This document shows positions 33,065 through 44,587 of a stretch of DNA of 64,000 nucleotides, piece by piece. Made by a program: the position numbers and the translations under genes. The notes beneath the pieces are model-generated. The model did no database searches, had not been told where the DNA came from, and worked only from the letters and a program-made list of their open reading frames with translations. Position 1 is the stretch's first letter. Each line of letters starts with the position of its first letter. Origin of the DNA: an uncultured Erysipelotrichaceae bacterium (lineage in GTDB: Bacteria > Bacillota_I > Bacilli_A > RFN20 > CAG-826); assembly GCA_902768335.1 (NCBI GenBank), contig CACXKR010000012.1, positions 4,870 to 68,869 on the forward strand, written 5' to 3'.

Positions 33065-36000
33065 ATGAAGAAGTTAATCGCAGGTATAGTCTTCACCATC
33101 TCATTGTCTTTTTCTTTTTTGTTACCAATTAATAAACAAAAAGGAGTGGAAATTGATAATCCAGAACTCGCTAAACCAGGCATGGTTGCCTACGCTGCTA
33201 GCTATGCTATTGACCCGACAAATGAACCTAAATATTCAACTCAAAATTCAAAGACATTTCAGTATCTTAATCTTGGACACACTTTAGAACATTATCGTGG
33301 TGATTCCGTCAAAGTCGGCATCATCGATTCTGGTATCAACTATGATCATGAAGACTTTTTGGTAAGCGGATCTAGAAAAGTTAAAGGCGATTCAAAATAT
33401 TATGCATATCAATCTTCTTCCTGGGTTCCTTACAAAGCATCTCAACATGGTTATTCATACATCAACGATACTTTAGGCCACGGCACAAATGTTGCTGCGA
33501 CAGTTGCTGCTGCGATAAATAGCGTTGGCGGAACAGGTCTAGCGCCAAATGTTGAACTATATGTTTACAAAGTAACCAACACAAGCAATGGTTATGAATT
33601 TGGGGCGATTCAAAATGCTTTAATGGATGCTAAAACCCTTGGTCTTGATGTAATCAACATGTCGTTCCAAAGTTATGAACACGCTGTTAGTTATAATGGT
33701 TCATCCATGGGCGCATCCTCTGGCTGCTCAACTATTCTTTCTTATTATTTAAATCAAGCCTATAATGCTGGTATCACCCTTGTGGGTGCGGCAGGAAACT
33801 ACAACACTAATGAGCCATCTTATCCTGGATCAAATAATCACGTTATCAATGTTGGCTCTTTAAATCAAACCGGTACCGATAAGGCTGGGTTTTCTAACTT
33901 TGGAAGCACAATCGATTTAGTCGCTCCAGGTTATGTTCATATCGCAGATAAAGGAACCAGTTCCTCATATAAAGACACATCTGGAACTTCGTTTTCTGCG
34001 CCTCTAGTAACTGCTGCGATTGCTTTATATAAACAACAAAATCCAAACGCAACTCCATCACAAATTGAATCAGCACTTTATGCAAGCTGTGATCCAATTG
34101 ACAGTGGATCTACATATTCTAACTGGGCTGGTAATGGCGCACTTAATGTCGCTAAGTTTTTAGGAGTTGAAGGTGAAAACTGTCCGACTGACATCGTCAT
34201 CAATAATCCTGAAATAGTTAATGAAGAATTAGAACTAGAAGTTGGTGATTATCTAGATTTAAATTGGACCGTTAACGGAAACGGAACATTTGATGATTCT
34301 GTTACTTTTTCTACGTATTCTGGAAATAACAATGTTGTTTCCATTAATTCTAGTGGAAGAATAACCGCTGTTGGCGAAGGCGAAGATATTGTTACAATCG
34401 AATCTAATGCTGATTCTAGTGTCACCGCTGATGTTTATGTAACTGTTACTTCTTCAAGTTCAACTCCAACGGTTTCATCTGTCACAGTTTCTCCAGCCTC
34501 TTTAAGTCTTGACTTAAACGGCACCACAACAGGTAATTTAAGTGCAACCGTAAATGGAGATAATAATCCATCTCAAGTAGTTTCTTGGGGTAGTTCAAAT
34601 ACAAGTATTGCCACTGTTTCGGCTTCGGGTGTTGTCACCGCTAAAGCAGTTGGCACAGCGACCATAACCGCAACTTCACAGCAAGATTCAACAAAATCTG
34701 GAAGTTGTACAGTGACTGTTACCGATAGCACTCCTCAGCCAGGGCCAACCGATTCAACTCAATATTCTTTGATTACTAGCACCGACGATTTGCAAGCCGG
34801 CAAGAGTTATTTAATTACCAATGGCACTAGTGAAACCGTGAAAACTATGTCTTCTTCAAGCAATACCAATAATAGACCGACAGTCAACGCCACGGTTTCA
34901 AGTAGCAAAATAACTAGAGGGTCTTCTGTTTTAAGTGTTACATTAGGTGGTTCATCTGGTGCATGGACGTTTGCAACCGATAATTACGCTGGAACAGCAG
35001 GTTATCTAAATGCCACTAGCACGACTGGCAGTAACTATCTTCAAGTAGTGTCATCACTTGATAAATATGCTTATTTCACCATTTCATTTTCTAATAACCA
35101 AGCGGTAATAACGTGTACTGGAAAGTCATCGAGAAACATAATTAGGTGTAATTCGAGTGGTACCCCAATTGCTTGTTATTCATCCGGACAAAATCCGGTT
35201 TATCTTTGGAAAGAAATTACTACTAAGACTCTTTCGAGTATCTCGGTAAATACCGCACCTACAAAAACAACATATGAAGCTGGCGATTATTTTGATCCAA
35301 CCGGACTTGTAATTACAAGAACTTATAGCGATAAAACTTCTGACACATATTCATATGCAAATCACACTAGTGAATTTGCTTTTAATCCAACAACATCAAT
35401 TGCATTAACTACAAGCCACACAAGTGTGACAATCACCTATGGTGGTAAGTCTACTTCTCAAGCAATTACAGTAAGTGCTGCAAAAACACTTTCTTCTATT
35501 ACAATCAGCGACTATAAAACCACGTTTGTTGAAGGAGACACGTTCTCATTTGATGGAACTGTAACCGCTCATTATTCAGACTCTTCTAGCGCTGACGTCA
35601 CTTCATCATCAACTTTTACTGGTTATAGCATGGCAAATGTCGGTAACCAAACAGTGACTGTTAGTTATACTCATAAAGGCGCAACGAAAACTCAAACATA
35701 TGAAATCACTATAAGTGCCGGAACACTTTCATCAATTTCGGTCAGTGGAATGACTACTGAATATGTGAAAAATGCTTCATTCACATTTGATGGAACTTGT
35801 ACTGCAACATTTGAAAACGGTTATCAAAAAACAGTTACTCCAACAAGCGTTTCATCTCCTGATATGACAACTGGCGGGAACAAAACTGTAACTGTTAGTT
35901 ACACATATAACGGAAAGACTGTAACAACCAACTATTCAATTACAGTTAACGCATATAGAACAGTTATGGAAAATGTGGTAAGTACAATTGGAACTGTTAA

Positions 36001-36748
36001 TTACTCGACAAATTCAGAAGTAATTACTGGTCCAGGAATTACTACAAGCAATAAAAGTACTGCGACGATAGAGAGTAATGCAATTAAACTAGGTAGTGGT
36101 AATTATGCCGGATCGTTTAAAGTCAATTACACTTCTGCCAGCATTTGTAAAGTAACGCTTTATGCGAAATCATACGGTAGTGATTCTGGAGTCACCTTGA
36201 GTGTAAACGGAATATCAAAGCCTTTAACTACTTCATACGCGACATATGAGTATGAGATTGCTGAACCGGTATCGTCTATTACAATTGCCACTTCAGCAAA
36301 GAATAAGAGAGCTTACATTCAAGTCGTAACCTTGTATTCAGAATCACTTCAAGACATCGGTCAAAGTGAAGATTGCAAAGGCCTAGAAACATTTATCAAT
36401 AACTATATGCATATGGATTACACCGAAAACCTCGGTTATTGTAGCGATTCAACTCACCATTACTATGCGACCGCCAAAGCAGCATTCAATGTTTTAAACG
36501 ATCATCAAAGAAAATTATTTACGACAAATTCTGCTTATTTAGTGGAGTGGACTAGATTATCGACTTGGGCTTCTAAAAACGGCGATAATCTCAATTCATC
36601 AAATCAGTTAGAAATTGCGGTAAAACCAGTAAATATTATCGCTTCAGGCTTTAATTCAGACATTGTTATTATCTTAGTAATAGGCACGCTTATTTCGCTT
36701 ACAGTTATAGGCGGATACTTACTTTTAAGAAAACGAAGAGAAGAATAG
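33065..36748 (+). CDS. Membrane-anchored subtilisin-like (S8) serine protease with Ig-like repeat domains
   Basis: Signal peptide. Catalytic triad motifs VGIIDSGI (Asp), HGTNVAATVA (His), SGTSFSAPLV (Ser). Big_2-like segments (VSWGSSNTSIATVSASGVVTAKAVGTATITA). Four repeats of about 80 aa of the YEAGDYFDPTGLVIT type. C-terminal TM helix plus RKRREE. Confidence 0.85.
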   Translation: MKKLIAGIVFTISLSFSFLLPINKQKGVEIDNPELAKPGMVAYAASYAIDPTNEPKYSTQNSKTFQYLNLGHTLEHYRGDSVKVGIIDSGINYDHEDFLVSGSRKVKGDSKYYAYQSSSWVPYKASQHGYSYINDTLGHGTNVAATVAAAINSVGGTGLAPNVELYVYKVTNTSNGYEFGAIQNALMDAKTLGLDVINMSFQSYEHAVSYNGSSMGASSGCSTILSYYLNQAYNAGITLVGAAGNYNTNEPSYPGSNNHVINVGSLNQTGTDKAGFSNFGSTIDLVAPGYVHIADKGTSSSYKDTSGTSFSAPLVTAAIALYKQQNPNATPSQIESALYASCDPIDSGSTYSNWAGNGALNVAKFLGVEGENCPTDIVINNPEIVNEELELEVGDYLDLNWTVNGNGTFDDSVTFSTYSGNNNVVSINSSGRITAVGEGEDIVTIESNADSSVTADVYVTVTSSSSTPTVSSVTVSPASLSLDLNGTTTGNLSATVNGDNNPSQVVSWGSSNTSIATVSASGVVTAKAVGTATITATSQQDSTKSGSCTVTVTDSTPQPGPTDSTQYSLITSTDDLQAGKSYLITNGTSETVKTMSSSSNTNNRPTVNATVSSSKITRGSSVLSVTLGGSSGAWTFATDNYAGTAGYLNATSTTGSNYLQVVSSLDKYAYFTISFSNNQAVITCTGKSSRNIIRCNSSGTPIACYSSGQNPVYLWKEITTKTLSSISVNTAPTKTTYEAGDYFDPTGLVITRTYSDKTSDTYSYANHTSEFAFNPTTSIALTTSHTSVTITYGGKSTSQAITVSAAKTLSSITISDYKTTFVEGDTFSFDGTVTAHYSDSSSADVTSSSTFTGYSMANVGNQTVTVSYTHKGATKTQTYEITISAGTLSSISVSGMTTEYVKNASFTFDGTCTATFENGYQKTVTPTSVSSPDMTTGGNKTVTVSYTYNGKTVTTNYSITVNAYRTVMENVVSTIGTVNYSTNSEVITGPGITTSNKSTATIESNAIKLGSGNYAGSFKVNYTSASICKVTLYAKSYGSDSGVTLSVNGISKPLTTSYATYEYEIAEPVSSITIATSAKNKRAYIQVVTLYSESLQDIGQSEDCKGLETFINNYMHMDYTENLGYCSDSTHHYYATAKAAFNVLNDHQRKLFTTNSAYLVEWTRLSTWASKNGDNLNSSNQLEIAVKPVNIIASGFNSDIVIILVIGTLISLTVIGGYLLLRKRREE

Positions 36749-36860: not shown

Positions 36861-38156
36861 ATGATTGCTAAAACAAGACATATTGAAGATACAAAGAAAT
36901 TGCTTGGTTCGTTGCCTGCAGTCAGATACGTTGATCCTGAATACGTTTATCTTCCAATTACTAATGCTAGATGCGCCAAAGGTGATCTTTTCATTAAGGA
37001 AGGTGACCACGTTGATACATGCCAATTGATTGGAATGAGACATGGTCCATTTTTTGAACAACCAATCCATGCGACTTGCTCAGGAACATTTGTTGGAATT
37101 GAAAAGCATTATCATCGTAATGGCAAACTCGTTGATTTTGTAAAGATTAAAAACGACTTCAAAGATACTTTCGATAAATCCGCTAAAAAAAGAACTCCAG
37201 AAGAAATCGCTAAATTAACCAAGGATGATTTCACTGAAATAGTTAAGAATTGCGCGCTTGTTGGTTTAGGAGGATCATCTTTCCCAACTTATGTTAAGTT
37301 TCAAACCGATAAGAAGATCGATACGATTTTAATTAACGCTATCGAATGTGAACCATATATTACTGCAGACCATCGTTTGATGCTCGAATATCCTTATCGA
37401 GTTATAAATGGTATTCAATATGCAATGCAAGCCTTTAATTGCAAGAAAGCATATATTTGCATCAAATCAAAATATAAAGACCTGAAAGAGGTCTACTCTC
37501 AACTACTAAAAGAAGTTGAAGGAATTGAACTTTGCTGTGTTGGTAACTACTATCCACAAGGATGGGAAGTTGAGATGATTAAAAGCGCAACCGGCATTCA
37601 ACTTAATCCAGGTGAACTTCCATCTAATCGTGGAATCATCGATTTCAATGTTTCAACAATCGTCGGTTTATATAAAGCCGTTAAATATAACATTCCAGTT
37701 ATTAAACGTTTTATTTCCATCACTGGTGATGGCATTAATTACCCAAAGAACTTTAGAGTTAGAGTGGGAACCTCGATTAAAGATCTAATTCCTTTAGTGG
37801 ATGGCTATAAAAATCCTGATAAAGAAAAAGTCTTTATTTTAGGTGGCCCTATGATGGGTGCATCAGTTCCAAGTGATGACTGCATCATTACAAAAACAGT
37901 TACTTCTATTCTTGTCTTTGACAAGCATGACGAAAAAGAAGAACCATGTGTTAGATGTGGTAGCTGTGTTTTATCTTGCCCAGTTCATCTTGAACCAGTC
38001 CAAATCATGAACGCAGTTAAAGCTGCTGATAAAGAAAGAATTAAAAAACTTAATCCTCTTAAATGCATTGAATGCGGCTTATGTGCTTATTCTTGCACTT
38101 CAAAGATTCAAGTTACCGATTATATTAGAAAGGCGAAGATTTTTGCGAAGCTATGA
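36861..38156 (+). CDS. rnfC: Rnf electron transport complex subunit C
   Basis: RnfC N-terminal barrel, NADH/FMN-binding GLGGSSFPT, and two 4Fe-4S motifs CVRCGSCVLSCP and CIECGLCAYSC. TATAAT (36849-36854) lies 6 nt before the ATG. Confidence 0.88.
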   Translation: MIAKTRHIEDTKKLLGSLPAVRYVDPEYVYLPITNARCAKGDLFIKEGDHVDTCQLIGMRHGPFFEQPIHATCSGTFVGIEKHYHRNGKLVDFVKIKNDFKDTFDKSAKKRTPEEIAKLTKDDFTEIVKNCALVGLGGSSFPTYVKFQTDKKIDTILINAIECEPYITADHRLMLEYPYRVINGIQYAMQAFNCKKAYICIKSKYKDLKEVYSQLLKEVEGIELCCVGNYYPQGWEVEMIKSATGIQLNPGELPSNRGIIDFNVSTIVGLYKAVKYNIPVIKRFISITGDGINYPKNFRVRVGTSIKDLIPLVDGYKNPDKEKVFILGGPMMGASVPSDDCIITKTVTSILVFDKHDEKEEPCVRCGSCVLSCPVHLEPVQIMNAVKAADKERIKKLNPLKCIECGLCAYSCTSKIQVTDYIRKAKIFAKL

Positions 38157-39271
38157 CAATAGTTAAAGAGAGCGCTCCACATTTAAGAAGAAAAGCCTCC
38201 GTCACAAGAATGATGGTGGATGTTTTAATCGCGCTATTCCCAACGCTAGTCTTTTCCTTTGTTGCTTATCCAATCAACACATTAATTTTCTATCTAACAT
38301 CTTTAGCGATTATGATTGGGGCAGAATTCATCTATGTTGGTTTAAGAGGCATTCTCCCTAAGGATGGACAAAAACACACCTTTAAAGAATGGTTTAATCA
38401 TGCCTATAAAGGAAAATATGATCAAAACAATATTTTAGCTCCTGCTATTACGGCTATTATATACACGCTCATTATGCCAGCTGGTGCGCCTATATACGCA
38501 TTCATCGTAGGTGCTATTGTCGGTATCGTATTTGGTAAACTTGTCTTCGGTGGACTTGGAAGCAACATCTTTAACCCTGCAGCAGTAGGTATGCTTTTTG
38601 CAAAGATTTGCTTTGGTTCACAATATCAACAAGTTTCAACTTGGTATTACACAATTCCTGATACTGTTTCGGGTGCCACACCTTTAGGTGTCATAAATGG
38701 TGGAATGCATGCTTCAATTGGAGATTATCAATTATTTGATCTCTTCTTTGGAAGAATACCAGGAACATTAGGTGAAGTTTATAAAATAACAATCATCATT
38801 GGCCTTGTTTATCTTCTTATTAGAAGAAGTGCTGATTATCGTATCGTCGTTTCTTATCTTGGCACATTCTCAATTTTAATGCTCATCGCTGGTTTATCCG
38901 TTATGGGACTTGGGACTGGAATTAATCCTTTTATGTTCCTACTTTATAACTTATTAAGCGGTGGTGTTTTGTTCGGCGCAGCATTTATGTTAACCGATCC
39001 AGTTACTTCACCAATCAACCCCCCATCTCGTTGGATTTATGGTATGGTCGCAGCTGTCGCTACAGTGTTAATTAGATTATTCGCAGCTTTGCCAGAAGGT
39101 GTTGGTTTCTCAATTCTAATCGCCAATATGGTGGCCTGTGTCTTAGATCACTATGAATGGTCATCATCAAGATATACTTGGAAGAAGTTCTTAACAATGG
39201 GTCTACTAATTGTGATTCCAGCGTTAATCGTTTTCTTAGCAATTTTCTATGGAGGTACATATAATGGCTAA
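38153..39271 (+). CDS. rnfD: Rnf complex subunit D
   Basis: Polytopic NqrB/RnfD family protein with the FMN attachment motif TVSGATPLG. Confidence 0.88.
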   Translation: MTIVKESAPHLRRKASVTRMMVDVLIALFPTLVFSFVAYPINTLIFYLTSLAIMIGAEFIYVGLRGILPKDGQKHTFKEWFNHAYKGKYDQNNILAPAITAIIYTLIMPAGAPIYAFIVGAIVGIVFGKLVFGGLGSNIFNPAAVGMLFAKICFGSQYQQVSTWYYTIPDTVSGATPLGVINGGMHASIGDYQLFDLFFGRIPGTLGEVYKITIIIGLVYLLIRRSADYRIVVSYLGTFSILMLIAGLSVMGLGTGINPFMFLLYNLLSGGVLFGAAFMLTDPVTSPINPPSRWIYGMVAAVATVLIRLFAALPEGVGFSILIANMVACVLDHYEWSSSRYTWKKFLTMGLLIVIPALIVFLAIFYGGTYNG

Positions 39272-39797
39272 CGCTAAACATTATATTTTTGTCTCCATAA
39301 CACTTGGTTCAATTGCTGCTGCAAGTGCGCTTTTAATCGGCGGTGCAAATTATTTAACTAGAGAAAAAATTACACAGAACGAAATAAATAGCATTAATAA
39401 GGGAATTGTCGCGATTTTTGGGCAATCTGCAGGGATAATTGAACAAAAAGAAATCGCTAATGATAGCTATAAATATGTCACCTATTACTATGCAGTTTCA
39501 AAAGAAGGAAGCGATGAGAATATCGGTGTCGCTTACCGCACGACCGGTTCAAATATGTATGGTAAAATCTCACTTCTTGTCGGATTTAATTTATCGAACG
39601 AATTTGTTTCTATTTCAGTTATCAGCGATGAACAAACATACGCTCAAACGTTGACCGATAATTATATCGTTCCTGTTCAAGATGGAACCAGAGATTATAA
39701 CGATGTTAGTTGTGGCGCTACTTATGGTGCAAAACTCATTAGAGATATGATTAATGACGCTAGCAAAGCTAACGAAGCACAAATATGGAAGGATTAA
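39264..39797 (+). CDS. rnfG: Rnf complex subunit G
   Basis: N-terminal TM plus FMN-binding domain with attachment-type motif SCGATYGAK. ATG 39264 preferred. Confidence 0.8.
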   Translation: MANAKHYIFVSITLGSIAAASALLIGGANYLTREKITQNEINSINKGIVAIFGQSAGIIEQKEIANDSYKYVTYYYAVSKEGSDENIGVAYRTTGSNMYGKISLLVGFNLSNEFVSISVISDEQTYAQTLTDNYIVPVQDGTRDYNDVSCGATYGAKLIRDMINDASKANEAQIWKD

Positions 39798-39798
39798 A

Positions 39799-40542
39799 AT
39801 GAAAAGGGAAAAGGGTTATACAAAAAAGAATTTCCTAAAAGGTATCATTAACGAGAACCCTCTTTTCGTTTCGATCCTTGGAACATGTCCTGCTCTTGCG
39901 ACTACTAAAACATTAGAGGCCGCGATCGGTATGGGTATCTTATTTACAGTTGTATTAATTTGTTCAAGTGCTTTGGTTTCTTTACTAAGAAAAGTTATAA
40001 GTGAAGAAATTCGTACACCTGCTTATATTGTTATCATCGCGACATTTGTCACAATTGTGAAAATGTTCACTAATGCTTTCTTACCAGATTTATATTCAAC
40101 ATTAGGTGTATTTATTTCGCTCATTGTTGTTAATTGCATTGTTCTTGGCCGTGCCGAAGCTTACGCTTCTAAAAACAATGTCTTTGATTCATTTATTGAC
40201 GCTTTAGGCATGGGTGTTGGCTACACCTTGGCTTTATTATCAATGGCATTCTTTAGAGAATTTTTAGGAACAGGCGCTTTTGCCTTTGGCAATATTTTCA
40301 CCTTTATTCCTCTCGTTAAAGTTCAAATTATTCCTAAGGAATATGTGATGTCTATATTCCAAAATCCAGCTGGAGCATTTATCGTCTTTGGTTTGATTCT
40401 TGCTGTCTTAGCGTTTATTAAAAACCGTAAAGAAGAATATAAAGCCTATCTTGCTAGACAAGAAAAGATTCGTAAAGCTGAAGAAGCCAAGAAAGCTGCA
40501 TTAGCAACTGCTGCTAATAAAGAGGAAGGAGGAAACAAATAA
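39799..40542 (+). CDS. rnfE: Rnf complex subunit E
   Basis: NqrD/RnfE family (ILGTCPALATT). ATG 39799 lies directly after the rnfG stop. Lys/Ala-rich C-terminal tail. Confidence 0.85.
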   Translation: MKREKGYTKKNFLKGIINENPLFVSILGTCPALATTKTLEAAIGMGILFTVVLICSSALVSLLRKVISEEIRTPAYIVIIATFVTIVKMFTNAFLPDLYSTLGVFISLIVVNCIVLGRAEAYASKNNVFDSFIDALGMGVGYTLALLSMAFFREFLGTGAFAFGNIFTFIPLVKVQIIPKEYVMSIFQNPAGAFIVFGLILAVLAFIKNRKEEYKAYLARQEKIRKAEEAKKAALATAANKEEGGNK

Positions 40543-41141
40543 TGAATATATTTGTCGCATTTGTTTTAGCTATTATTTCCTCGATGCTTATGGATAACGT
40601 CGTCTTATCTAGATTTTATGGCATTTGTCCATTCCTTGGCGTTTCCCGTAAAGTTAATTCTTCCCTAGGAATGGGTGTAGCGGTTGTTTTTGTTATCATG
40701 CTCGCTACATTGATATGCTGGCCTTTCTACACCTACATCTTGGTGCCTGCTGGAATCCCATTCATGGATACGGTTGCCTATATCCTTGTTATTGCTTCTT
40801 TAGTTCAACTAACTGGTCTATTTATTAAAAAATATTCACCATCTCTATATAAGAGCCTTGGTATTTATTTACCACTTATTACTACTAACTGTGCAGTTTT
40901 AGGTGTTGCTCAAGGTAATACCGATCAAGGTTTATCTTTCTTAGATAGCATTGCGAATGGTTTAGGAACCTCGATTGGTTTCTTATTAATCATCGTTACC
41001 TTTAGTTGCATTAGAACTAGACTCGAAACCGCGAATACACCAAAAGCATTTAAGGGTTTACCAATCGCTTTAATCACTGCTGCAATTATGGCAATTGCTT
41101 TAGTAGGTCTACAAGGATTATTCTCAGGAATTAAGTTATGA
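40542..41141 (+). CDS. rnfA: Rnf complex subunit A
   Basis: NqrE/RnfA family (FYGICPFLGVS), six TM segments. Confidence 0.88.
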   Translation: MNIFVAFVLAIISSMLMDNVVLSRFYGICPFLGVSRKVNSSLGMGVAVVFVIMLATLICWPFYTYILVPAGIPFMDTVAYILVIASLVQLTGLFIKKYSPSLYKSLGIYLPLITTNCAVLGVAQGNTDQGLSFLDSIANGLGTSIGFLLIIVTFSCIRTRLETANTPKAFKGLPIALITAAIMAIALVGLQGLFSGIKL

Positions 41142-41341
41142 GTAAGGATTTAACATTAGTTATCGCAATTGTTATCTTAACTGCTTTAGTAGCTATATTT
41201 TTCATTTCTTTTGTCGCGTACCGTAAAACACCGATGCCTAAGGGATGCGAAAATCTAAAGATGGATCAAGAAAAATGTGCTTCTTGTTCTAATGAATCAT
41301 GCATGTTTCATAAGAAAGAAGAAAGCGAGGATAATAAATAA
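41138..41341 (+). CDS. Small membrane-anchored Cys-rich protein inserted between rnfA and rnfB
   Basis: 67 aa, translationally coupled at both ends. One N-terminal TM helix, then C-x9-C-x2-C-x4-C ([21 protein letters not shown]). The architecture resembles FeoB-associated Cys-rich mini-proteins. Confidence 0.6.
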
Positions 41342-41658
41342 TGGAAATTTTGTGGGCTATTTTAATTTTATTAGGTGTTGGCCTTGTCCTCGGTTTTGGT
41401 CTTGCTATTGCTGCTAAAATTCTTCATGTTAAAGAAGATGAAAGAATAGATGAAGTCGCCAAAAGGCTTCCAAACTACAACTGTGGTAGCTGTGGTTATG
41501 CTGGCTGTAAAGCTCTTGCGGAAGCTATTGTTAAGGGCGAAGAAGAAAATCTGCGTAGATGTAAACCGGGTAAAGAAGACCTTAACTTCAAACCTATTAT
41601 CGAATATTTAGATCAACATCCAAACGAAGATGGCACAAAAGTAAAAGTCCATCTCTAA
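41341..41658 (+). CDS. rnfB: RnfB-like subunit, N-terminal Fe-S domain only (no ferredoxin-type dicluster domain)
   Basis: TM helix plus [21 protein letters not shown]...RRCKPG matches the N-terminal RnfB cluster domain. The protein stops at 105 aa and apbE starts 3 nt later. Confidence 0.75.
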
Positions 41659-41660
41659 AA

Positions 41661-42611
41661 ATGAAATTAAAATCACTTTTATCAACTCTATTAATCATTC
41701 CTTTAATATCTTGCTCACAAGCTTCTAGTCTTGAAAGCAAGGTTTTTTGTTTTGATACCGCAATCGACATAAGATTATTTGAAGGCGAAAAACAAAACCT
41801 AAATGATATTGAAAACATTTTTTCTTATTACGATAAAATCAGTGATAACTATAAGCAAAGAGACGTTAATAATGTCTATTTAGTTAACAACACAAATGAT
41901 GATGTTTTAGTTGATGAAACACTATATTCGATGTTACAAAAATCATTCGCGCTAAAAGAAGAGATTCGCTATTTTAATCCGCTTTGTGGAAGCCTCGCAA
42001 AAAAATGGAAAGAATCTCTAAAATCCTCGCAAATCTTGGATGAAGCGACCATCCAAAGCGAACTAAGCAAGTTGAATAATTCCTCAGTTTTATTTAAAGA
42101 TAATAATCTCATTCAAAGGCTTGGCGGAGCTGAAATCGATCTAGGCGCAGTCGCCAAAGGTTTTGCCCTAGATGAGGTCAAAAAATATCTCGTTTCAAAA
42201 TCATTTTCTAAATATTTAATTAATTCTGGATATTCATCCATTCTTCTAGGTCAAAAGCAATCCGATGATGGTTTATTTTCCGTTGGTTTAAGCGATATCG
42301 ATAATGCGTATTTGAAATTATCTAATTGTTTTGTTTCTACTTCTGGCGTTTCAACTCAAGGTGTTAAAATCGATGATCAAATATATTCTCATATTGTTAA
42401 TCCTTATACGGGCAGTGCCATTAATAATTACGATACAGTCATCGTTATTTCTTCTTCAGGCTATCTTGGAGACGCTATATCTACCTCGTTTATGCTTTCA
42501 AGCATTGATGAAATAAAACAAGTAGAACAAACTCAAAATGTTAAGGCGATTGCTATTAAAGATAAGAATATCGTTTATAAAAACGAATCACTCGAGGTGT
42601 ATTATCACTAA
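41661..42611 (+). CDS. apbE: FAD:protein FMN transferase ApbE (lipoprotein)
   Basis: Lipobox LISC and ApbE family core (DLGAVAKGFALD). Confidence 0.8.
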   Translation: MKLKSLLSTLLIIPLISCSQASSLESKVFCFDTAIDIRLFEGEKQNLNDIENIFSYYDKISDNYKQRDVNNVYLVNNTNDDVLVDETLYSMLQKSFALKEEIRYFNPLCGSLAKKWKESLKSSQILDEATIQSELSKLNNSSVLFKDNNLIQRLGGAEIDLGAVAKGFALDEVKKYLVSKSFSKYLINSGYSSILLGQKQSDDGLFSVGLSDIDNAYLKLSNCFVSTSGVSTQGVKIDDQIYSHIVNPYTGSAINNYDTVIVISSSGYLGDAISTSFMLSSIDEIKQVEQTQNVKAIAIKDKNIVYKNESLEVYYH

Positions 42612-42985
42612 TGGATAAGAAAAAATTAACTAATGACATAATTCTTATTGGCTCGCTTCTTGTCCTAGCAATAGTGTCTTTAGTCATCATTTTAACTACA
42701 AGAAATAAATCAAATTTGATCGCAACTGTCCGCGTTCAAAATCAAATTGTTTTAAAAATTGATTTAAATAAAGACGAGGGTAAAGATTTTGTTGTAGATG
42801 GTATTAACGGGCAAGTTCGTATTCACGTTAAAGATGGAGCGATCGCTGTTACTGAGTCAAATTGCCCACATCAAGACTGTGTTAGAACAGGTTACGTGAA
42901 TCAAACCGGAAAACCAATTATTTGCGCTTATAATGGTGTTAGTATAACCATTGAAGGCAATTCTAGTAACGATATTGAGGTTTAA
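42611..42985 (+). CDS. NusG domain II-containing membrane protein
   Basis: Single N-terminal TM segment, beta-rich domain, CPHQDCV motif. The usual partner of Gx transporter genes. Confidence 0.55.
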   Translation: MDKKKLTNDIILIGSLLVLAIVSLVIILTTRNKSNLIATVRVQNQIVLKIDLNKDEGKDFVVDGINGQVRIHVKDGAIAVTESNCPHQDCVRTGYVNQTGKPIICAYNGVSITIEGNSSNDIEV

Positions 42986-42987
42986 AA

Positions 42988-43506
42988 ATGAATACTCATA
43001 AGTTAGTGTTAATCGGTGTTTTGTCGGCCTCCGCAATTGTTATTGCCATTTTAGAATCATTTATTCCTAGTATTGGAATACCTGGAATTAAACTTGGTTT
43101 AGCAAATATAGTTATTTTATTAACTATCTATGAATTAGGCGTCATGGAAGCTGCTTTTATTAATATTCTCCGTGTCCTAATAGTAGCAGTGGTTAGAGGA
43201 ACCTTGTTATCAATGGGCTTTTTCATGTCTTTAACTGGAGCATTTTTATCTTTTGCGATCATGGTTTTATTTGCATTAACAATAAAAAAATTCTCCGTCA
43301 TCGGTGTATCCGTTATCGGAGCAATTTTTCATGTTGTCGGACAAATTATTGTCGCGATGATTTATTTAGATTCTGCTTATATTCTTTTTTATCTTCCAAT
43401 TATCGCTTTGTCCGCTATTATCACCGGAATTTTAGTGGGAATAGTTACTCAGGCAATTATTCGCACTGGTGTAATTAAAAAGCAACGAGAAAAATACAAT
43501 TTTTAG
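42988..43506 (+). CDS. Gx transporter family membrane protein (heptaprenyl diphosphate synthase component I-like)
   Basis: 172 aa with five TM segments. Conserved pairing with the NusG_II gene next to apbE. Confidence 0.6.
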   Translation: MNTHKLVLIGVLSASAIVIAILESFIPSIGIPGIKLGLANIVILLTIYELGVMEAAFINILRVLIVAVVRGTLLSMGFFMSLTGAFLSFAIMVLFALTIKKFSVIGVSVIGAIFHVVGQIIVAMIYLDSAYILFYLPIIALSAIITGILVGIVTQAIIRTGVIKKQREKYNF

Positions 43507-43946
43507 AATAAATCTTCCAGTATTGAAGCGACTTTCGTAAGGAAGTCCTTTTCTTTATTAGTAAATCTAGACAATAAAGGAGAATCGATATCGATAACTC
43601 CTTTGACTACATTATTTTTTATAATTGGCACGACAATTTCACTTTTGGATTTTGCAGAGCAGGCAATATGACCTTCAAATTTTGATACATCATCAACAAT
43701 GATTGTTTCTTTTCTTTTGAACGAGGTGCCACATACTCCTTTTCCACATTCAATTTTAGTGCAGGCCACTTCACCTTGAAATGGTCCTAGATAAAGAGTA
43801 TTTCCGTTGACCAAATAAAAGCCGCACCAATTGATGTCTTCCATCTGATTTAGAACCGCAGAAACATTCGAAAGGTTACTATATAGCGGCAGCGATTTAT
43901 CAACTAATAATTCAATTTGTTTATGCAGAATATCGTAGTTTTGCAT
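43503..43946 (-). CDS. GAF domain protein (free methionine-R-sulfoxide reductase type)
   Basis: 147 aa. The WCGFY, GPFQGEVACTKI and GKGVCG pattern is typical of fRMsr/YebR GAF proteins. Confidence 0.7.
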   Translation of the reverse strand: MQNYDILHKQIELLVDKSLPLYSNLSNVSAVLNQMEDINWCGFYLVNGNTLYLGPFQGEVACTKIECGKGVCGTSFKRKETIIVDDVSKFEGHIACSAKSKSEIVVPIIKNNVVKGVIDIDSPLLSRFTNKEKDFLTKVASILEDLF

Positions 43947-43948
43947 AC

Positions 43949-44503
43949 TTATTTAAGTGTAAAACCTACTTTGAAAGCATCTGCAACTTCTTCTTTAACA
44001 AGACGATATTTGTGGTTAACTGCATCGTAGGAAATAAATTCCATTTTTTCGGTGTCGATTTTTCCATCCTTAATATAGGATTCATCAACACTAACGGAAA
44101 TAACTTTACCAATTAAAATACCTTCTTCTTCGTCAAAGCTTTCGACTTCGCATTCCATTGTAAAAGGAAATTCTTCAAATAATGGAGCGTTTACTTTACT
44201 TGATTTAATAGGAGTTAAACCAGCTTTTTTAATTTTGTTAGGTTCTTGTTTTTGTGATACCACTCCAACATAATCGCAAGCTGCAACAGTTTTCCTAGTT
44301 CCAAAGCTTAAGGTGAATGCTTTGTTTAATTTGAGATTAGCGGTGGTCTTATGTTCGCTTAAAGCGATGAAGACTTTATCCATATCATAAGTTCCACCCC
44401 AAGCAGCGTTCATTGCATTGGCATTTCCTTCTTTATCGTAAGTTCCGATTATTAGAACTGGTTGTGGCATAATCCACGGTTTACTTGAATATTCTTTTCT
44501 CAT
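43949..44503 (-). CDS. Flavin reductase-like FMN-binding protein
   Basis: Split-barrel flavoredoxin-like sequence (PQPVLIIGTYDKEGNANAMNAAWGG). The ATG at 44503 has SD gagga; the longer ORF start at 44536 is rejected. Confidence 0.7.
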   Translation of the reverse strand: MRKEYSSKPWIMPQPVLIIGTYDKEGNANAMNAAWGGTYDMDKVFIALSEHKTTANLKLNKAFTLSFGTRKTVAACDYVGVVSQKQEPNKIKKAGLTPIKSSKVNAPLFEEFPFTMECEVESFDEEEGILIGKVISVSVDESYIKDGKIDTEKMEFISYDAVNHKYRLVKEEVADAFKVGFTLK

Positions 44504-44587
44504 AATTTTTTCCTCAATGAAATAATAATTCAACAAAATATTGTTGTATAGTTTTTCTTTGCCTAAAATAAAGATAGGAGGATATTT

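Follow-up and report, generated by a model that had tools for sequence, protein, structure and literature searches.

A minimal RnfB and a conserved cysteine-motif membrane mini-protein, a candidate new component, in the Rnf operon of an uncultured RFN20 bacterium

Anaerobes rely on Rnf as a central enzyme of energy coupling. We analyzed an Rnf operon in a 64,000-nucleotide stretch of DNA (the window) from an uncultured Erysipelotrichaceae bacterium of the GTDB order RFN20 (GCA_902768335.1, contig CACXKR010000012.1, positions 4,870 to 68,869 of the forward strand). The list of open reading frames (ORFs) and the raw sequence show a tightly packed plus-strand operon at 36861-43506, with the order rnfC-D-G-E-A-mini-rnfB-apbE-NusG_II-Gx. 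Two of its genes are the subject of this work. The first, at 41138-41341 (+), encodes a single-pass membrane protein of 67 amino acids (aa; 7.6 kDa), called the mini-protein here, and the second, at 41341-41658 (+), encodes an RnfB of only 105 aa (11.6 kDa). The start codon of the mini-ORF overlaps the rnfA stop codon (ATGA) and has an AGGA 8 nt upstream, while the rnfB start overlaps the mini-ORF stop (TAATG) and is preceded by GAGGA 9 nt upstream; the mini-gene and rnfB are read in different frames. A prior reading of the DNA, made from its letters alone (the sequence-only reading), had described a translationally coupled 67-aa ORF with one transmembrane (TM) helix and the motif C-x9-C-x2-C-x4-C, and both the coordinates and the motif hold.

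That reading had also called for a check of whether the mini-ORF is conserved beside rnfB in relatives. We performed a tblastn-type search of 60 relatives followed by profile searches of the order and the class; sampling was confined to the class, and a scan at the level of the phylum likewise returned members of this class alone. Of the genomes searched, 182 of 301 in the order and 188 of 399 in the class carry the mini-gene, representing 117 of 218 genera, and it was located between rnfA and a short rnfB in every locus that was fetched (20/20, 29/29, 80/80, and 23/23). According to depositor labels, the carriers are uncultured rumen or gut "Bacilli," "Erysipelotrichaceae," "Acholeplasmatales," and "Anaeroplasmataceae/Anaeroplasma," together with Ca. 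Onthovivens, Ca. Pelethenecus, and Ca. Alloenteromonas, three lineages that we take to belong to GTDB order RFN20. An exhaustive hidden Markov model (HMM) search of 1.84 billion representatives returned 290 clusters at 50% identity, all of them 49 to 101 aa long, and no fusion of the mini-protein to another domain was present among these clusters.

Wherever the protein is named by NCBI, it is a "hypothetical protein," and no model covered it in Pfam and NCBIfam scans, in which PF12669 alone gave a sub-threshold match. Its absence from both collections and its NCBI label would be compatible with a chance ORF or a non-coding spacer. This possibility is effectively refuted, as frame, position, and motif are conserved across hundreds of species and many families, the family comprises those 290 clusters, and the ratio of nonsynonymous to synonymous substitution rates (dN/dS) is low. 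Nei-Gojobori estimates on the same 105 pairs gave dN/dS values of 0.23 for the mini-gene and 0.17 for rnfB, which are rough because dS is near saturation. By part, and with the same saturation of dS, the values for the mini-gene were 0.31 in the TM segment, 0.26 in the linker and cysteine region, and 0.76 in the charged tail, indicating relaxed constraint on the latter. Given the coupling on both sides, a dN/dS of about 0.23, and the conserved position across many families of Bacilli, the mini-ORF is a real gene under purifying selection, and apparently a co-translated one.

AlphaFold2 (AF2) modeled residues 3-30 of the mini-protein (41144-41227, +) as a TM helix, with block-mean predicted local distance difference test (pLDDT) values of 88-98. 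The cysteine motif, C37-x9-C47-x2-C50-x4-C55, is encoded at 41246-41302 (+). Across 142 representatives, the mean charge is +1.7 in the eight residues that follow the TM helix and about 0 at the N-terminus, and this positive-inside pattern predicts an N-out, C-in topology that would place the cysteine motif in the cytoplasm, like the RnfB domain. At the level of the order, the invariant residues are T31, P32, P34, G36, C37, E38, C47, C50, and C55. C47, C50, and C55 are also invariant in two alignments built with the window protein as the query (A1 and A2), and a C-x2-C-x4/5-C array is kept in 145 of the 149 listed representatives. Judging from these alignments, the invariant core of the mini-protein consists of three cysteines, C-x2-C-x4-C, a spacing that is the same as that of the cluster-binding CGxCGxxGC motif of RnfB.

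We compared the mini-protein with the N-terminus of RnfB using hhalign, which placed both the motifs and the TM helices in register with a probability of 48-56%. In reversed-sequence controls, the TM helix proved to account for most of this score, and without it the cytoplasmic part aligned over 12 columns with a probability of 15%, versus 1% for the reversed control. Thus, the likeness between the two proteins is a resemblance at the level of the motif, and homology is not demonstrated.

RnfB itself is built from a TM helix and a single PF04060 [4Fe-4S] domain, followed by a short helical tail ending at residue 105. It matches PF04060 with E = 1.3e-12 and TIGR01944 with 71.1 bits (cut-off, 68.7). 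The iron-sulfur (Fe-S) domain covers residues 43-76 in the Pfam match (41467-41568, +) and contains C48, C51, C56, and C74, all invariant in alignment A3. The 30-residue helical tail carries a conserved Y-L-x2-H-P-x2-D-G motif. The sequence-only reading had stated that the ferredoxin-like 2x[4Fe-4S] domains are missing from this protein. We confirmed this: no Fer4 domain was detected in Pfam and NCBIfam scans, and of TIGR01944 only the N-terminal half was matched (model positions 4-92 of 190). The protein aligns with residues 4-80 of the RnfB chains of solved complexes, 9eri_B (333 aa), 7zc6_B (274 aa), and 8ahx_B (174 aa).

The AF2 model of RnfB, obtained from a 24-sequence alignment, has a pLDDT of 91.4 and shows a TM helix at residues 2-27 and a small helical domain, the last helix (79-92) corresponding to the conserved tail. 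Its best Foldseek match in the PDB (2ycl_A, prob 1.0) is the [4Fe-4S] domain at the N-terminus of the corrinoid iron-sulfur protein (CFeSP), the archetypal PF04060 domain. A search of 5.8 billion proteins yielded RnfB orthologues in 598 clusters at 90% identity, the best 120 of the 598 being 105-106 aa long. In view of these clusters, the compact AF2 fold, and the match to the CFeSP domain, the short RnfB is native and lineage-wide and not a truncation artifact.

A full-length RnfB or a separate polyferredoxin encoded elsewhere would have undermined the sequence-only reading. Both were looked for in the host genome (989 kb, 27 contigs, 35% G+C), which is 89% complete, and neither a second or full-length RnfB nor a stand-alone polyferredoxin was found; the RnfB of the operon was the single PF04060 match of the profile scan. 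In many relatives, but not in the host, a PF04060 domain also occurs in a protein of about 560-580 aa that is unrelated to Rnf (e.g., G240:C5:19873 and G284:C10:18501).

We then related the mini-gene to the architecture of RnfB in 125 non-redundant loci, by locus inspection and a class-wide TIGR01944 scan. The mini-gene accompanies a short RnfB at 111 loci. At four others, all from one family of larger genomes, it is found with a tandem RnfB of 183-192 aa that has two PF04060 domains and no Fer4. By contrast, it is absent from eight loci of two families in which RnfB is a long polyferredoxin of 263-277 aa and rnfB starts about 10 nt after rnfA, and no mini-protein match was detected anywhere in these eight genomes at E <= 0.001. 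Lastly, two loci have a short RnfB and no mini-gene, namely, that of G468 and the second operon of G542. The mini-gene is thus present in 115 of 117 loci with a short or tandem-FeS RnfB and in none of the 8 loci with a long one. Across a large clade of small-genome Bacilli, Rnf operons are normally of this minimal-RnfB type.

In the two operons of the last kind (L171/L193 of G468 and L172/L194 of G542:C1), an RnfB of 100-104 aa directly follows rnfA. Their RnfB tails are devoid of the Y-L-x2-H-P-x2-D-G motif, and on the rnf strand of the stretches fetched, genes for apbE, NusG_II, and Gx were not seen. Three more genomes, G179, G100, and G325, had emerged from the HMM scans as having a short RnfB without a mini-gene, but inspection revealed divergent or very short mini-proteins, with the arrays C-x2-C-x3-C in G179 and C-x4-C-x2-C-x4-C in G100 and a 40-aa version in G325. 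In family f22 (e.g., G334, G465, and G657; genomes of 1.4-2.2 Mb), each genome has six to eight TIGR01944 matches, several of them to short RnfB-like proteins whose genes are partly with and partly without a mini-gene, which suggests multiple Rnf-like operons per genome. The tandem RnfBs (L173-L176 of G414, G403, G379, and G353; genomes of 2.3-3.6 Mb) have a Lys-rich linker, and their architecture is missing from the table of solved complexes in a 2025 review (PMC12174285). One of these loci, L175 of G379, contains a second mini-like ORF on the minus strand (2148-2348) about 800 nt downstream of rnfB, encoding 66 aa with a TM helix and C-x7-C-x2-C-x4-C.

The other genes of the operon were analyzed by family scans. 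All six Rnf subunit genes are present, with C, D, E, A, and B at or near the NCBIfam and Pfam cut-offs and rnfG weak. rnfC (36861-38156, +; 431 aa) encodes the NADH- and flavin mononucleotide (FMN)-binding subunit with two [4Fe-4S] motifs (TIGR01945, E = 1.5e-104, 350 bits; cut-off, 246) and the Pfam domains Complex1_51K, RnfC_N, SLBB, and Fer4. rnfD (38153-39271, +; 372 aa; PF03116, E = 2.6e-77) has the flavinylation motif SGAT within TVSGATPLG in its translation. rnfE (39754-40542, +; 262 aa) matches NF009070 with E = 1.9e-72 and TIGR01948 with 218.5 bits (cut-off, 213.4), and rnfA (40542-41141, +; 199 aa) matches TIGR01943 with 230.9 bits (cut-off, 229.3). The translations of both genes contain the Cys motifs for the intramembrane [2Fe-2S] cluster, GTCPAL and VNCIVLG in RnfE and GICPF and TNCAVLG in RnfA, the ligand positions being taken from the review (PMC12174285).

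The gene in the position of rnfG (39249-39797, +; 182 aa) is divergent. It reaches only 30 bits against TIGR01947 (E = 3.9e-7; cut-off, 102), no FMN_bind match was found in the Pfam scan, and its presumed flavinylation site reads CGAT rather than SGAT (DVSCGAT). We nevertheless took it for RnfG because its operon position and the DVSCGAT motif fit. Thus, where rnfC, D, G, E, and A had all been called canonical, the description suits C, D, E, and A but not RnfG. In some operons of the same type (L066, L078, L085, L110, L127, and L129), RnfG is 332-388 aa long, roughly double the normal size, and may represent multi-FMN or fused forms of the kind noted by Meheust et al. 2021.

Two nucleotides past the rnfB stop codon begins apbE (41661-42611, +), which codes for a flavin transferase of 316 aa with a lipoprotein-like N-terminus (PF02424, E = 7.6e-38). 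For the [S/T]GA[S/T] flavinylation motifs expected in RnfD and RnfG, the operon shows SGAT in RnfD and CGAT in an RnfG with no FMN_bind match, alongside the apbE gene. Next come genes for a NusG_II-domain membrane protein (42611-42985, +; 124 aa; PF07009, E = 1.2e-23) and a Gx transporter/PF07456 membrane protein (42988-43506, +; 172 aa; PF07456, E = 8.8e-39), the latter being the last gene of the operon. The trio formed by apbE, NusG_II, and PF07456 "Gx" is conserved 3' of both short-RnfB and long-RnfB operons in the class, and its NusG_II and Gx members have no assigned role. The operon had been thought to continue into a GAF gene and a flavin-reductase gene. However, these (43503-43946 and 43949-44536) are minus-strand genes that run toward the rnf operon, and a terminator-like hairpin lies 3' of the Gx gene at 43530-43547. 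For these reasons we place them outside the operon, whereas apbE, NusG_II, and Gx do extend it past rnfB. Directly upstream of the operon, a 1227-aa ORF (33065-36748) has a hydrophobic N-terminal segment, a long Ser/Thr-rich middle, and a hydrophobic C-terminal segment.

The lack of the RnfB C-terminal domain raises the issue of the electron partner. In the 2025 review, the small PF04060 domain is described as a flexibly tethered unit that passes electrons to the RnfA/E [2Fe-2S] cluster, and the C-terminal domain, with its 2-7 clusters, as the ferredoxin acceptor in all solved complexes (PMC12174285). The sequence-only reading had seen in the one-cluster RnfB a non-standard input module, perhaps working with a partner other than ferredoxin. 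A one-cluster RnfB is not in itself such a module, and no other partner is needed. The RnfB of Thermotoga maritima is a 10.56-kDa protein with one predicted [4Fe-4S] cluster, and the purified T. maritima complex oxidizes clostridial ferredoxin while pumping Na+ (PMC7414866; Kuhns et al. 2020). The host genome encodes a 1187-aa pyruvate:ferredoxin oxidoreductase (PFOR) and a Fer4_15 ferredoxin of 61 aa, and no flavodoxin scored above the cut-off in it. With this precedent and this gene content, ferredoxin is the economical assumption and most likely remains the partner of the minimal-RnfB complex. The complex would then be a ferredoxin:NAD+ oxidoreductase, and its mobile RnfB domain would accept electrons directly, or nearly so, from a small ferredoxin, the likely candidate being the 61-aa single-cluster protein reduced by PFOR. 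It is improbable that ferredoxin was abandoned and that the minimal RnfB, together with the mini-protein, serves another redox partner as its input module. The loss of the domain described as the acceptor of cytoplasmic ferredoxin (PMC12174285), with no full-length RnfB or stand-alone polyferredoxin found in the genome to replace it, would fit such a switch, but T. maritima Rnf uses ferredoxin with a one-cluster RnfB (PMC7414866), PFOR and the small ferredoxin have been kept, and a flavodoxin was not detected above the cut-off.

What, then, might the mini-protein do? It probably belongs to the Rnf pump as an additional part or serves it as a dedicated helper. As the gene is real, conserved, co-translated, and a companion of the short RnfB, the proposal of an unrecognised Rnf component stays a credible hypothesis, and the role proposed below is hypothetical. 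Among the specific roles, we tentatively favor an accessory, roughly stoichiometric, metal-binding seventh subunit over an assembly factor, short of confidence in it. Such a subunit would sit in the membrane beside RnfB and RnfA/E and hold an Fe-S cluster or Zn at the cytoplasmic face; in proteins without the upstream cysteine, a different residue may supply the fourth ligand. There it might assist in positioning or parking the mobile RnfB domain, or it might provide ferredoxin with an additional relay or docking site.

The position of the gene is one reason for this preference, as it lies inside the structural block, between two structural genes and coupled on both sides, whereas apbE, the gene of a maturation enzyme, follows rnfB. 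The same position counts against the assembly factor, which would resemble NqrM and deliver Fe or an Fe-S unit to the RnfA/E [2Fe-2S] or the RnfB cluster without being a permanent subunit; we consider this somewhat unlikely. NqrM is a small membrane-bound Fe-S maturation protein that is co-transcribed with the nqr genes and apbE (PMC12174285), and the mini-gene is just one gene away from apbE. A helper would also be consistent with the partly dispensable set of cysteines, the fast evolution of the protein outside its Cys core, and the two short-RnfB operons that lack the gene. However, no PF04400 (NqrM) match was obtained for the window protein and 16 orthologues at E values up to 10, although HMMER filters may hide very weak ones. 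Moreover, all eight polyferredoxin-RnfB operons of the class do without the mini-gene, as do their genomes, even though they have the same RnfA/E cluster to mature, and canonical Rnf complexes, including those expressed and solved, have not been reported to need such a factor (PMC12174285). The intact state of the remaining Rnf genes in the family scans is also counted for the subunit.

A third reason for preferring a subunit is that the C-x2-C-x4-C spacing equals that of the Fe-S-binding motif of RnfB. In a stronger version, the mini-protein would be a redox-active seventh subunit, a membrane-anchored micro-ferredoxin with its own Fe-S cluster at the cytoplasmic surface that forms a new type of ferredoxin entry site together with RnfB. 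Its motif might derive from that of RnfB, RnfB or RnfA/E might contribute a ligand that completes its cluster, and the entry site would be made of PF04060-like units, with a single-cluster or tandem-FeS RnfB and no polyferredoxin. We regard this version as unlikely.

The same cysteines could serve a non-redox micro-subunit, a Zn knuckle or thiol switch that stabilizes or regulates the complex, for instance as an O2 or redox sensor in aerotolerant anaerobes. With a three-Cys core and a His or Cys no more than five residues after the last Cys in 42 of 145 representatives, Zn is as compatible as an Fe-S cluster. The Cys tail, of about 20 residues, is short and unstructured in the AF2 model, and 9 of 16 members gave sub-threshold matches to PF12669 (best E = 0.0037). 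Against this, the cysteines are spaced exactly as in the Fe-S-binding motif of the neighboring RnfB, and the products of the operon are all carriers of redox cofactors or their maturases. A non-redox role therefore seems distinctly unlikely to us.

Several observations weigh against the accessory metal-binding subunit that we prefer. The site is not a conserved Cys4 site: the upstream cysteine, 4-12 residues before the core, is present in 108 of the 145 core-bearing representatives and absent from 37, among them L025, L159, L161, L173, and L176. The ligands had been considered enough for one cluster or metal site, which is only partly right, as the first of the cysteines is missing in about 25% of representatives. 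In the AF2 model, built from a 25-sequence alignment, the Cys tail has a pLDDT of 53-59 and is unstructured, although a poorly modeled tail is expected of a peptide that depends on a metal or a partner. A paralogous origin from the RnfB N-terminus was considered and not established, the hhalign score being driven by the TM helix. The operons of G468 and G542 indicate that a one-cluster RnfB does not strictly require the mini-protein, and T. maritima Rnf, described as the product of a six-gene operon, is functional with such an RnfB (PMC7414866). Finally, in the RnfA tree, the long-RnfB operons form one clade (Shimodaira-Hasegawa-like approximate likelihood ratio test [SH-aLRT], 87) and the two mini-less short-RnfB operons another (SH-aLRT, 84), so that about two state changes suffice to explain the anticorrelation between the mini-gene and a long RnfB. 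The association between the mini-gene and the RnfB type is real, but it is phylogenetically shallow as evidence of functional compensation. The suggestion that the mini-protein stands in place of the lost RnfB domains thus goes beyond the evidence: the mini-gene is missing from long-RnfB operons, but this contrast goes back to one or two evolutionary events, and two short-RnfB operons lack it as well.

The short RnfB is already documented for Thermotoga (PMC7414866). For the mini-protein, or for operons of the short-RnfB type in Bacilli and Mollicutes-related bacteria (Erysipelotrichia, Acholeplasma), we found no descriptive paper in a literature search. In the description of Peloplasma aerotolerans, the Rnf cluster is listed with gaps in the accessions (MDI6452239 and MDI6452242), which are compatible with unannotated extra genes at such positions. 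The operon is thus a variant of a known system with a candidate new component. In current structures, ferredoxin docks on the multi-cluster C-terminal domain of RnfB, yet a clade abundant in the gut and rumen does without this domain and carries instead an undescribed Cys-motif membrane micro-protein. If it proves to be a subunit, Rnf would need a new definition of its minimal electron-entry module, and the protein would be a new type of Fe-S or metal micro-subunit. Heterologous expression of Rnf is notoriously difficult, and an assembly factor, which would be the first Rnf counterpart of NqrM, would be relevant to it. Either way, this family, which pipelines now label "hypothetical," merits a name and a model.

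Among the closest known systems is that of T. maritima, which resembles the operon of the window in having an RnfB of about 100 residues with one predicted cluster in an otherwise standard operon (PMC7414866). The window RnfB, with 11.6 kDa and one PF04060 domain, falls within the T. maritima type of minimal RnfB, defined as about 10-12 kDa with a single predicted cluster. The T. maritima operon comprises six genes, rnfCDGEAB, with no mini-protein reported (PMC7414866), although its rnfA-rnfB junction was not inspected here, whereas the window operon has the mini-gene. More than six bands were observed by Kuhns et al. 2020. Unlike T. maritima, the window host belongs to mesophilic gut or rumen Bacilli, and the two short RnfBs are likened by size and cluster count. 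Canonical RnfB (TIGR01944; 7ZC6_B, 8AHX_B, and 9ERI_B) has the same N-terminal TM helix and PF04060 array, C-x2-C-x4-C-x17-C, but continues into a C-terminal domain of 2-7 [4Fe-4S] clusters where the window protein ends in its 30-residue helical tail.

The mini-protein resembles several small proteins without matching any of them. Like NqrM (PF04400/DUF539), it is small, single-pass, and endowed with conserved cysteines, and it is encoded with pump genes and apbE; it differs in its Cys spacing, in the lack of a PF04400 match, and in a gene position between structural genes rather than after apbE. NqrM is reported to have one TM helix and four cysteines, of which only one is essential; such a pattern would fit the dispensable first cysteine of the mini-protein. 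With the FeoB-associated Cys-rich membrane proteins of PF12669, the mini-protein shares a length within 40-70 aa, one TM helix, and a Cys-rich cytoplasmic tail. Its score against that family, 15.6 bits (E = 0.02), is below the 27-bit gathering cut-off, the nine of 16 members mentioned above match at E < 10, and the mini-gene was never beside feoB in the loci seen; PF12669 itself has no known function. RnfH of Azotobacter and Rhodobacter is an earlier example of a seventh Rnf subunit that is lineage-specific and has its gene in the operon (PMC12174285), but it is soluble, has no cofactor-binding cysteines, and is unrelated to the mini-protein in both sequence and architecture.

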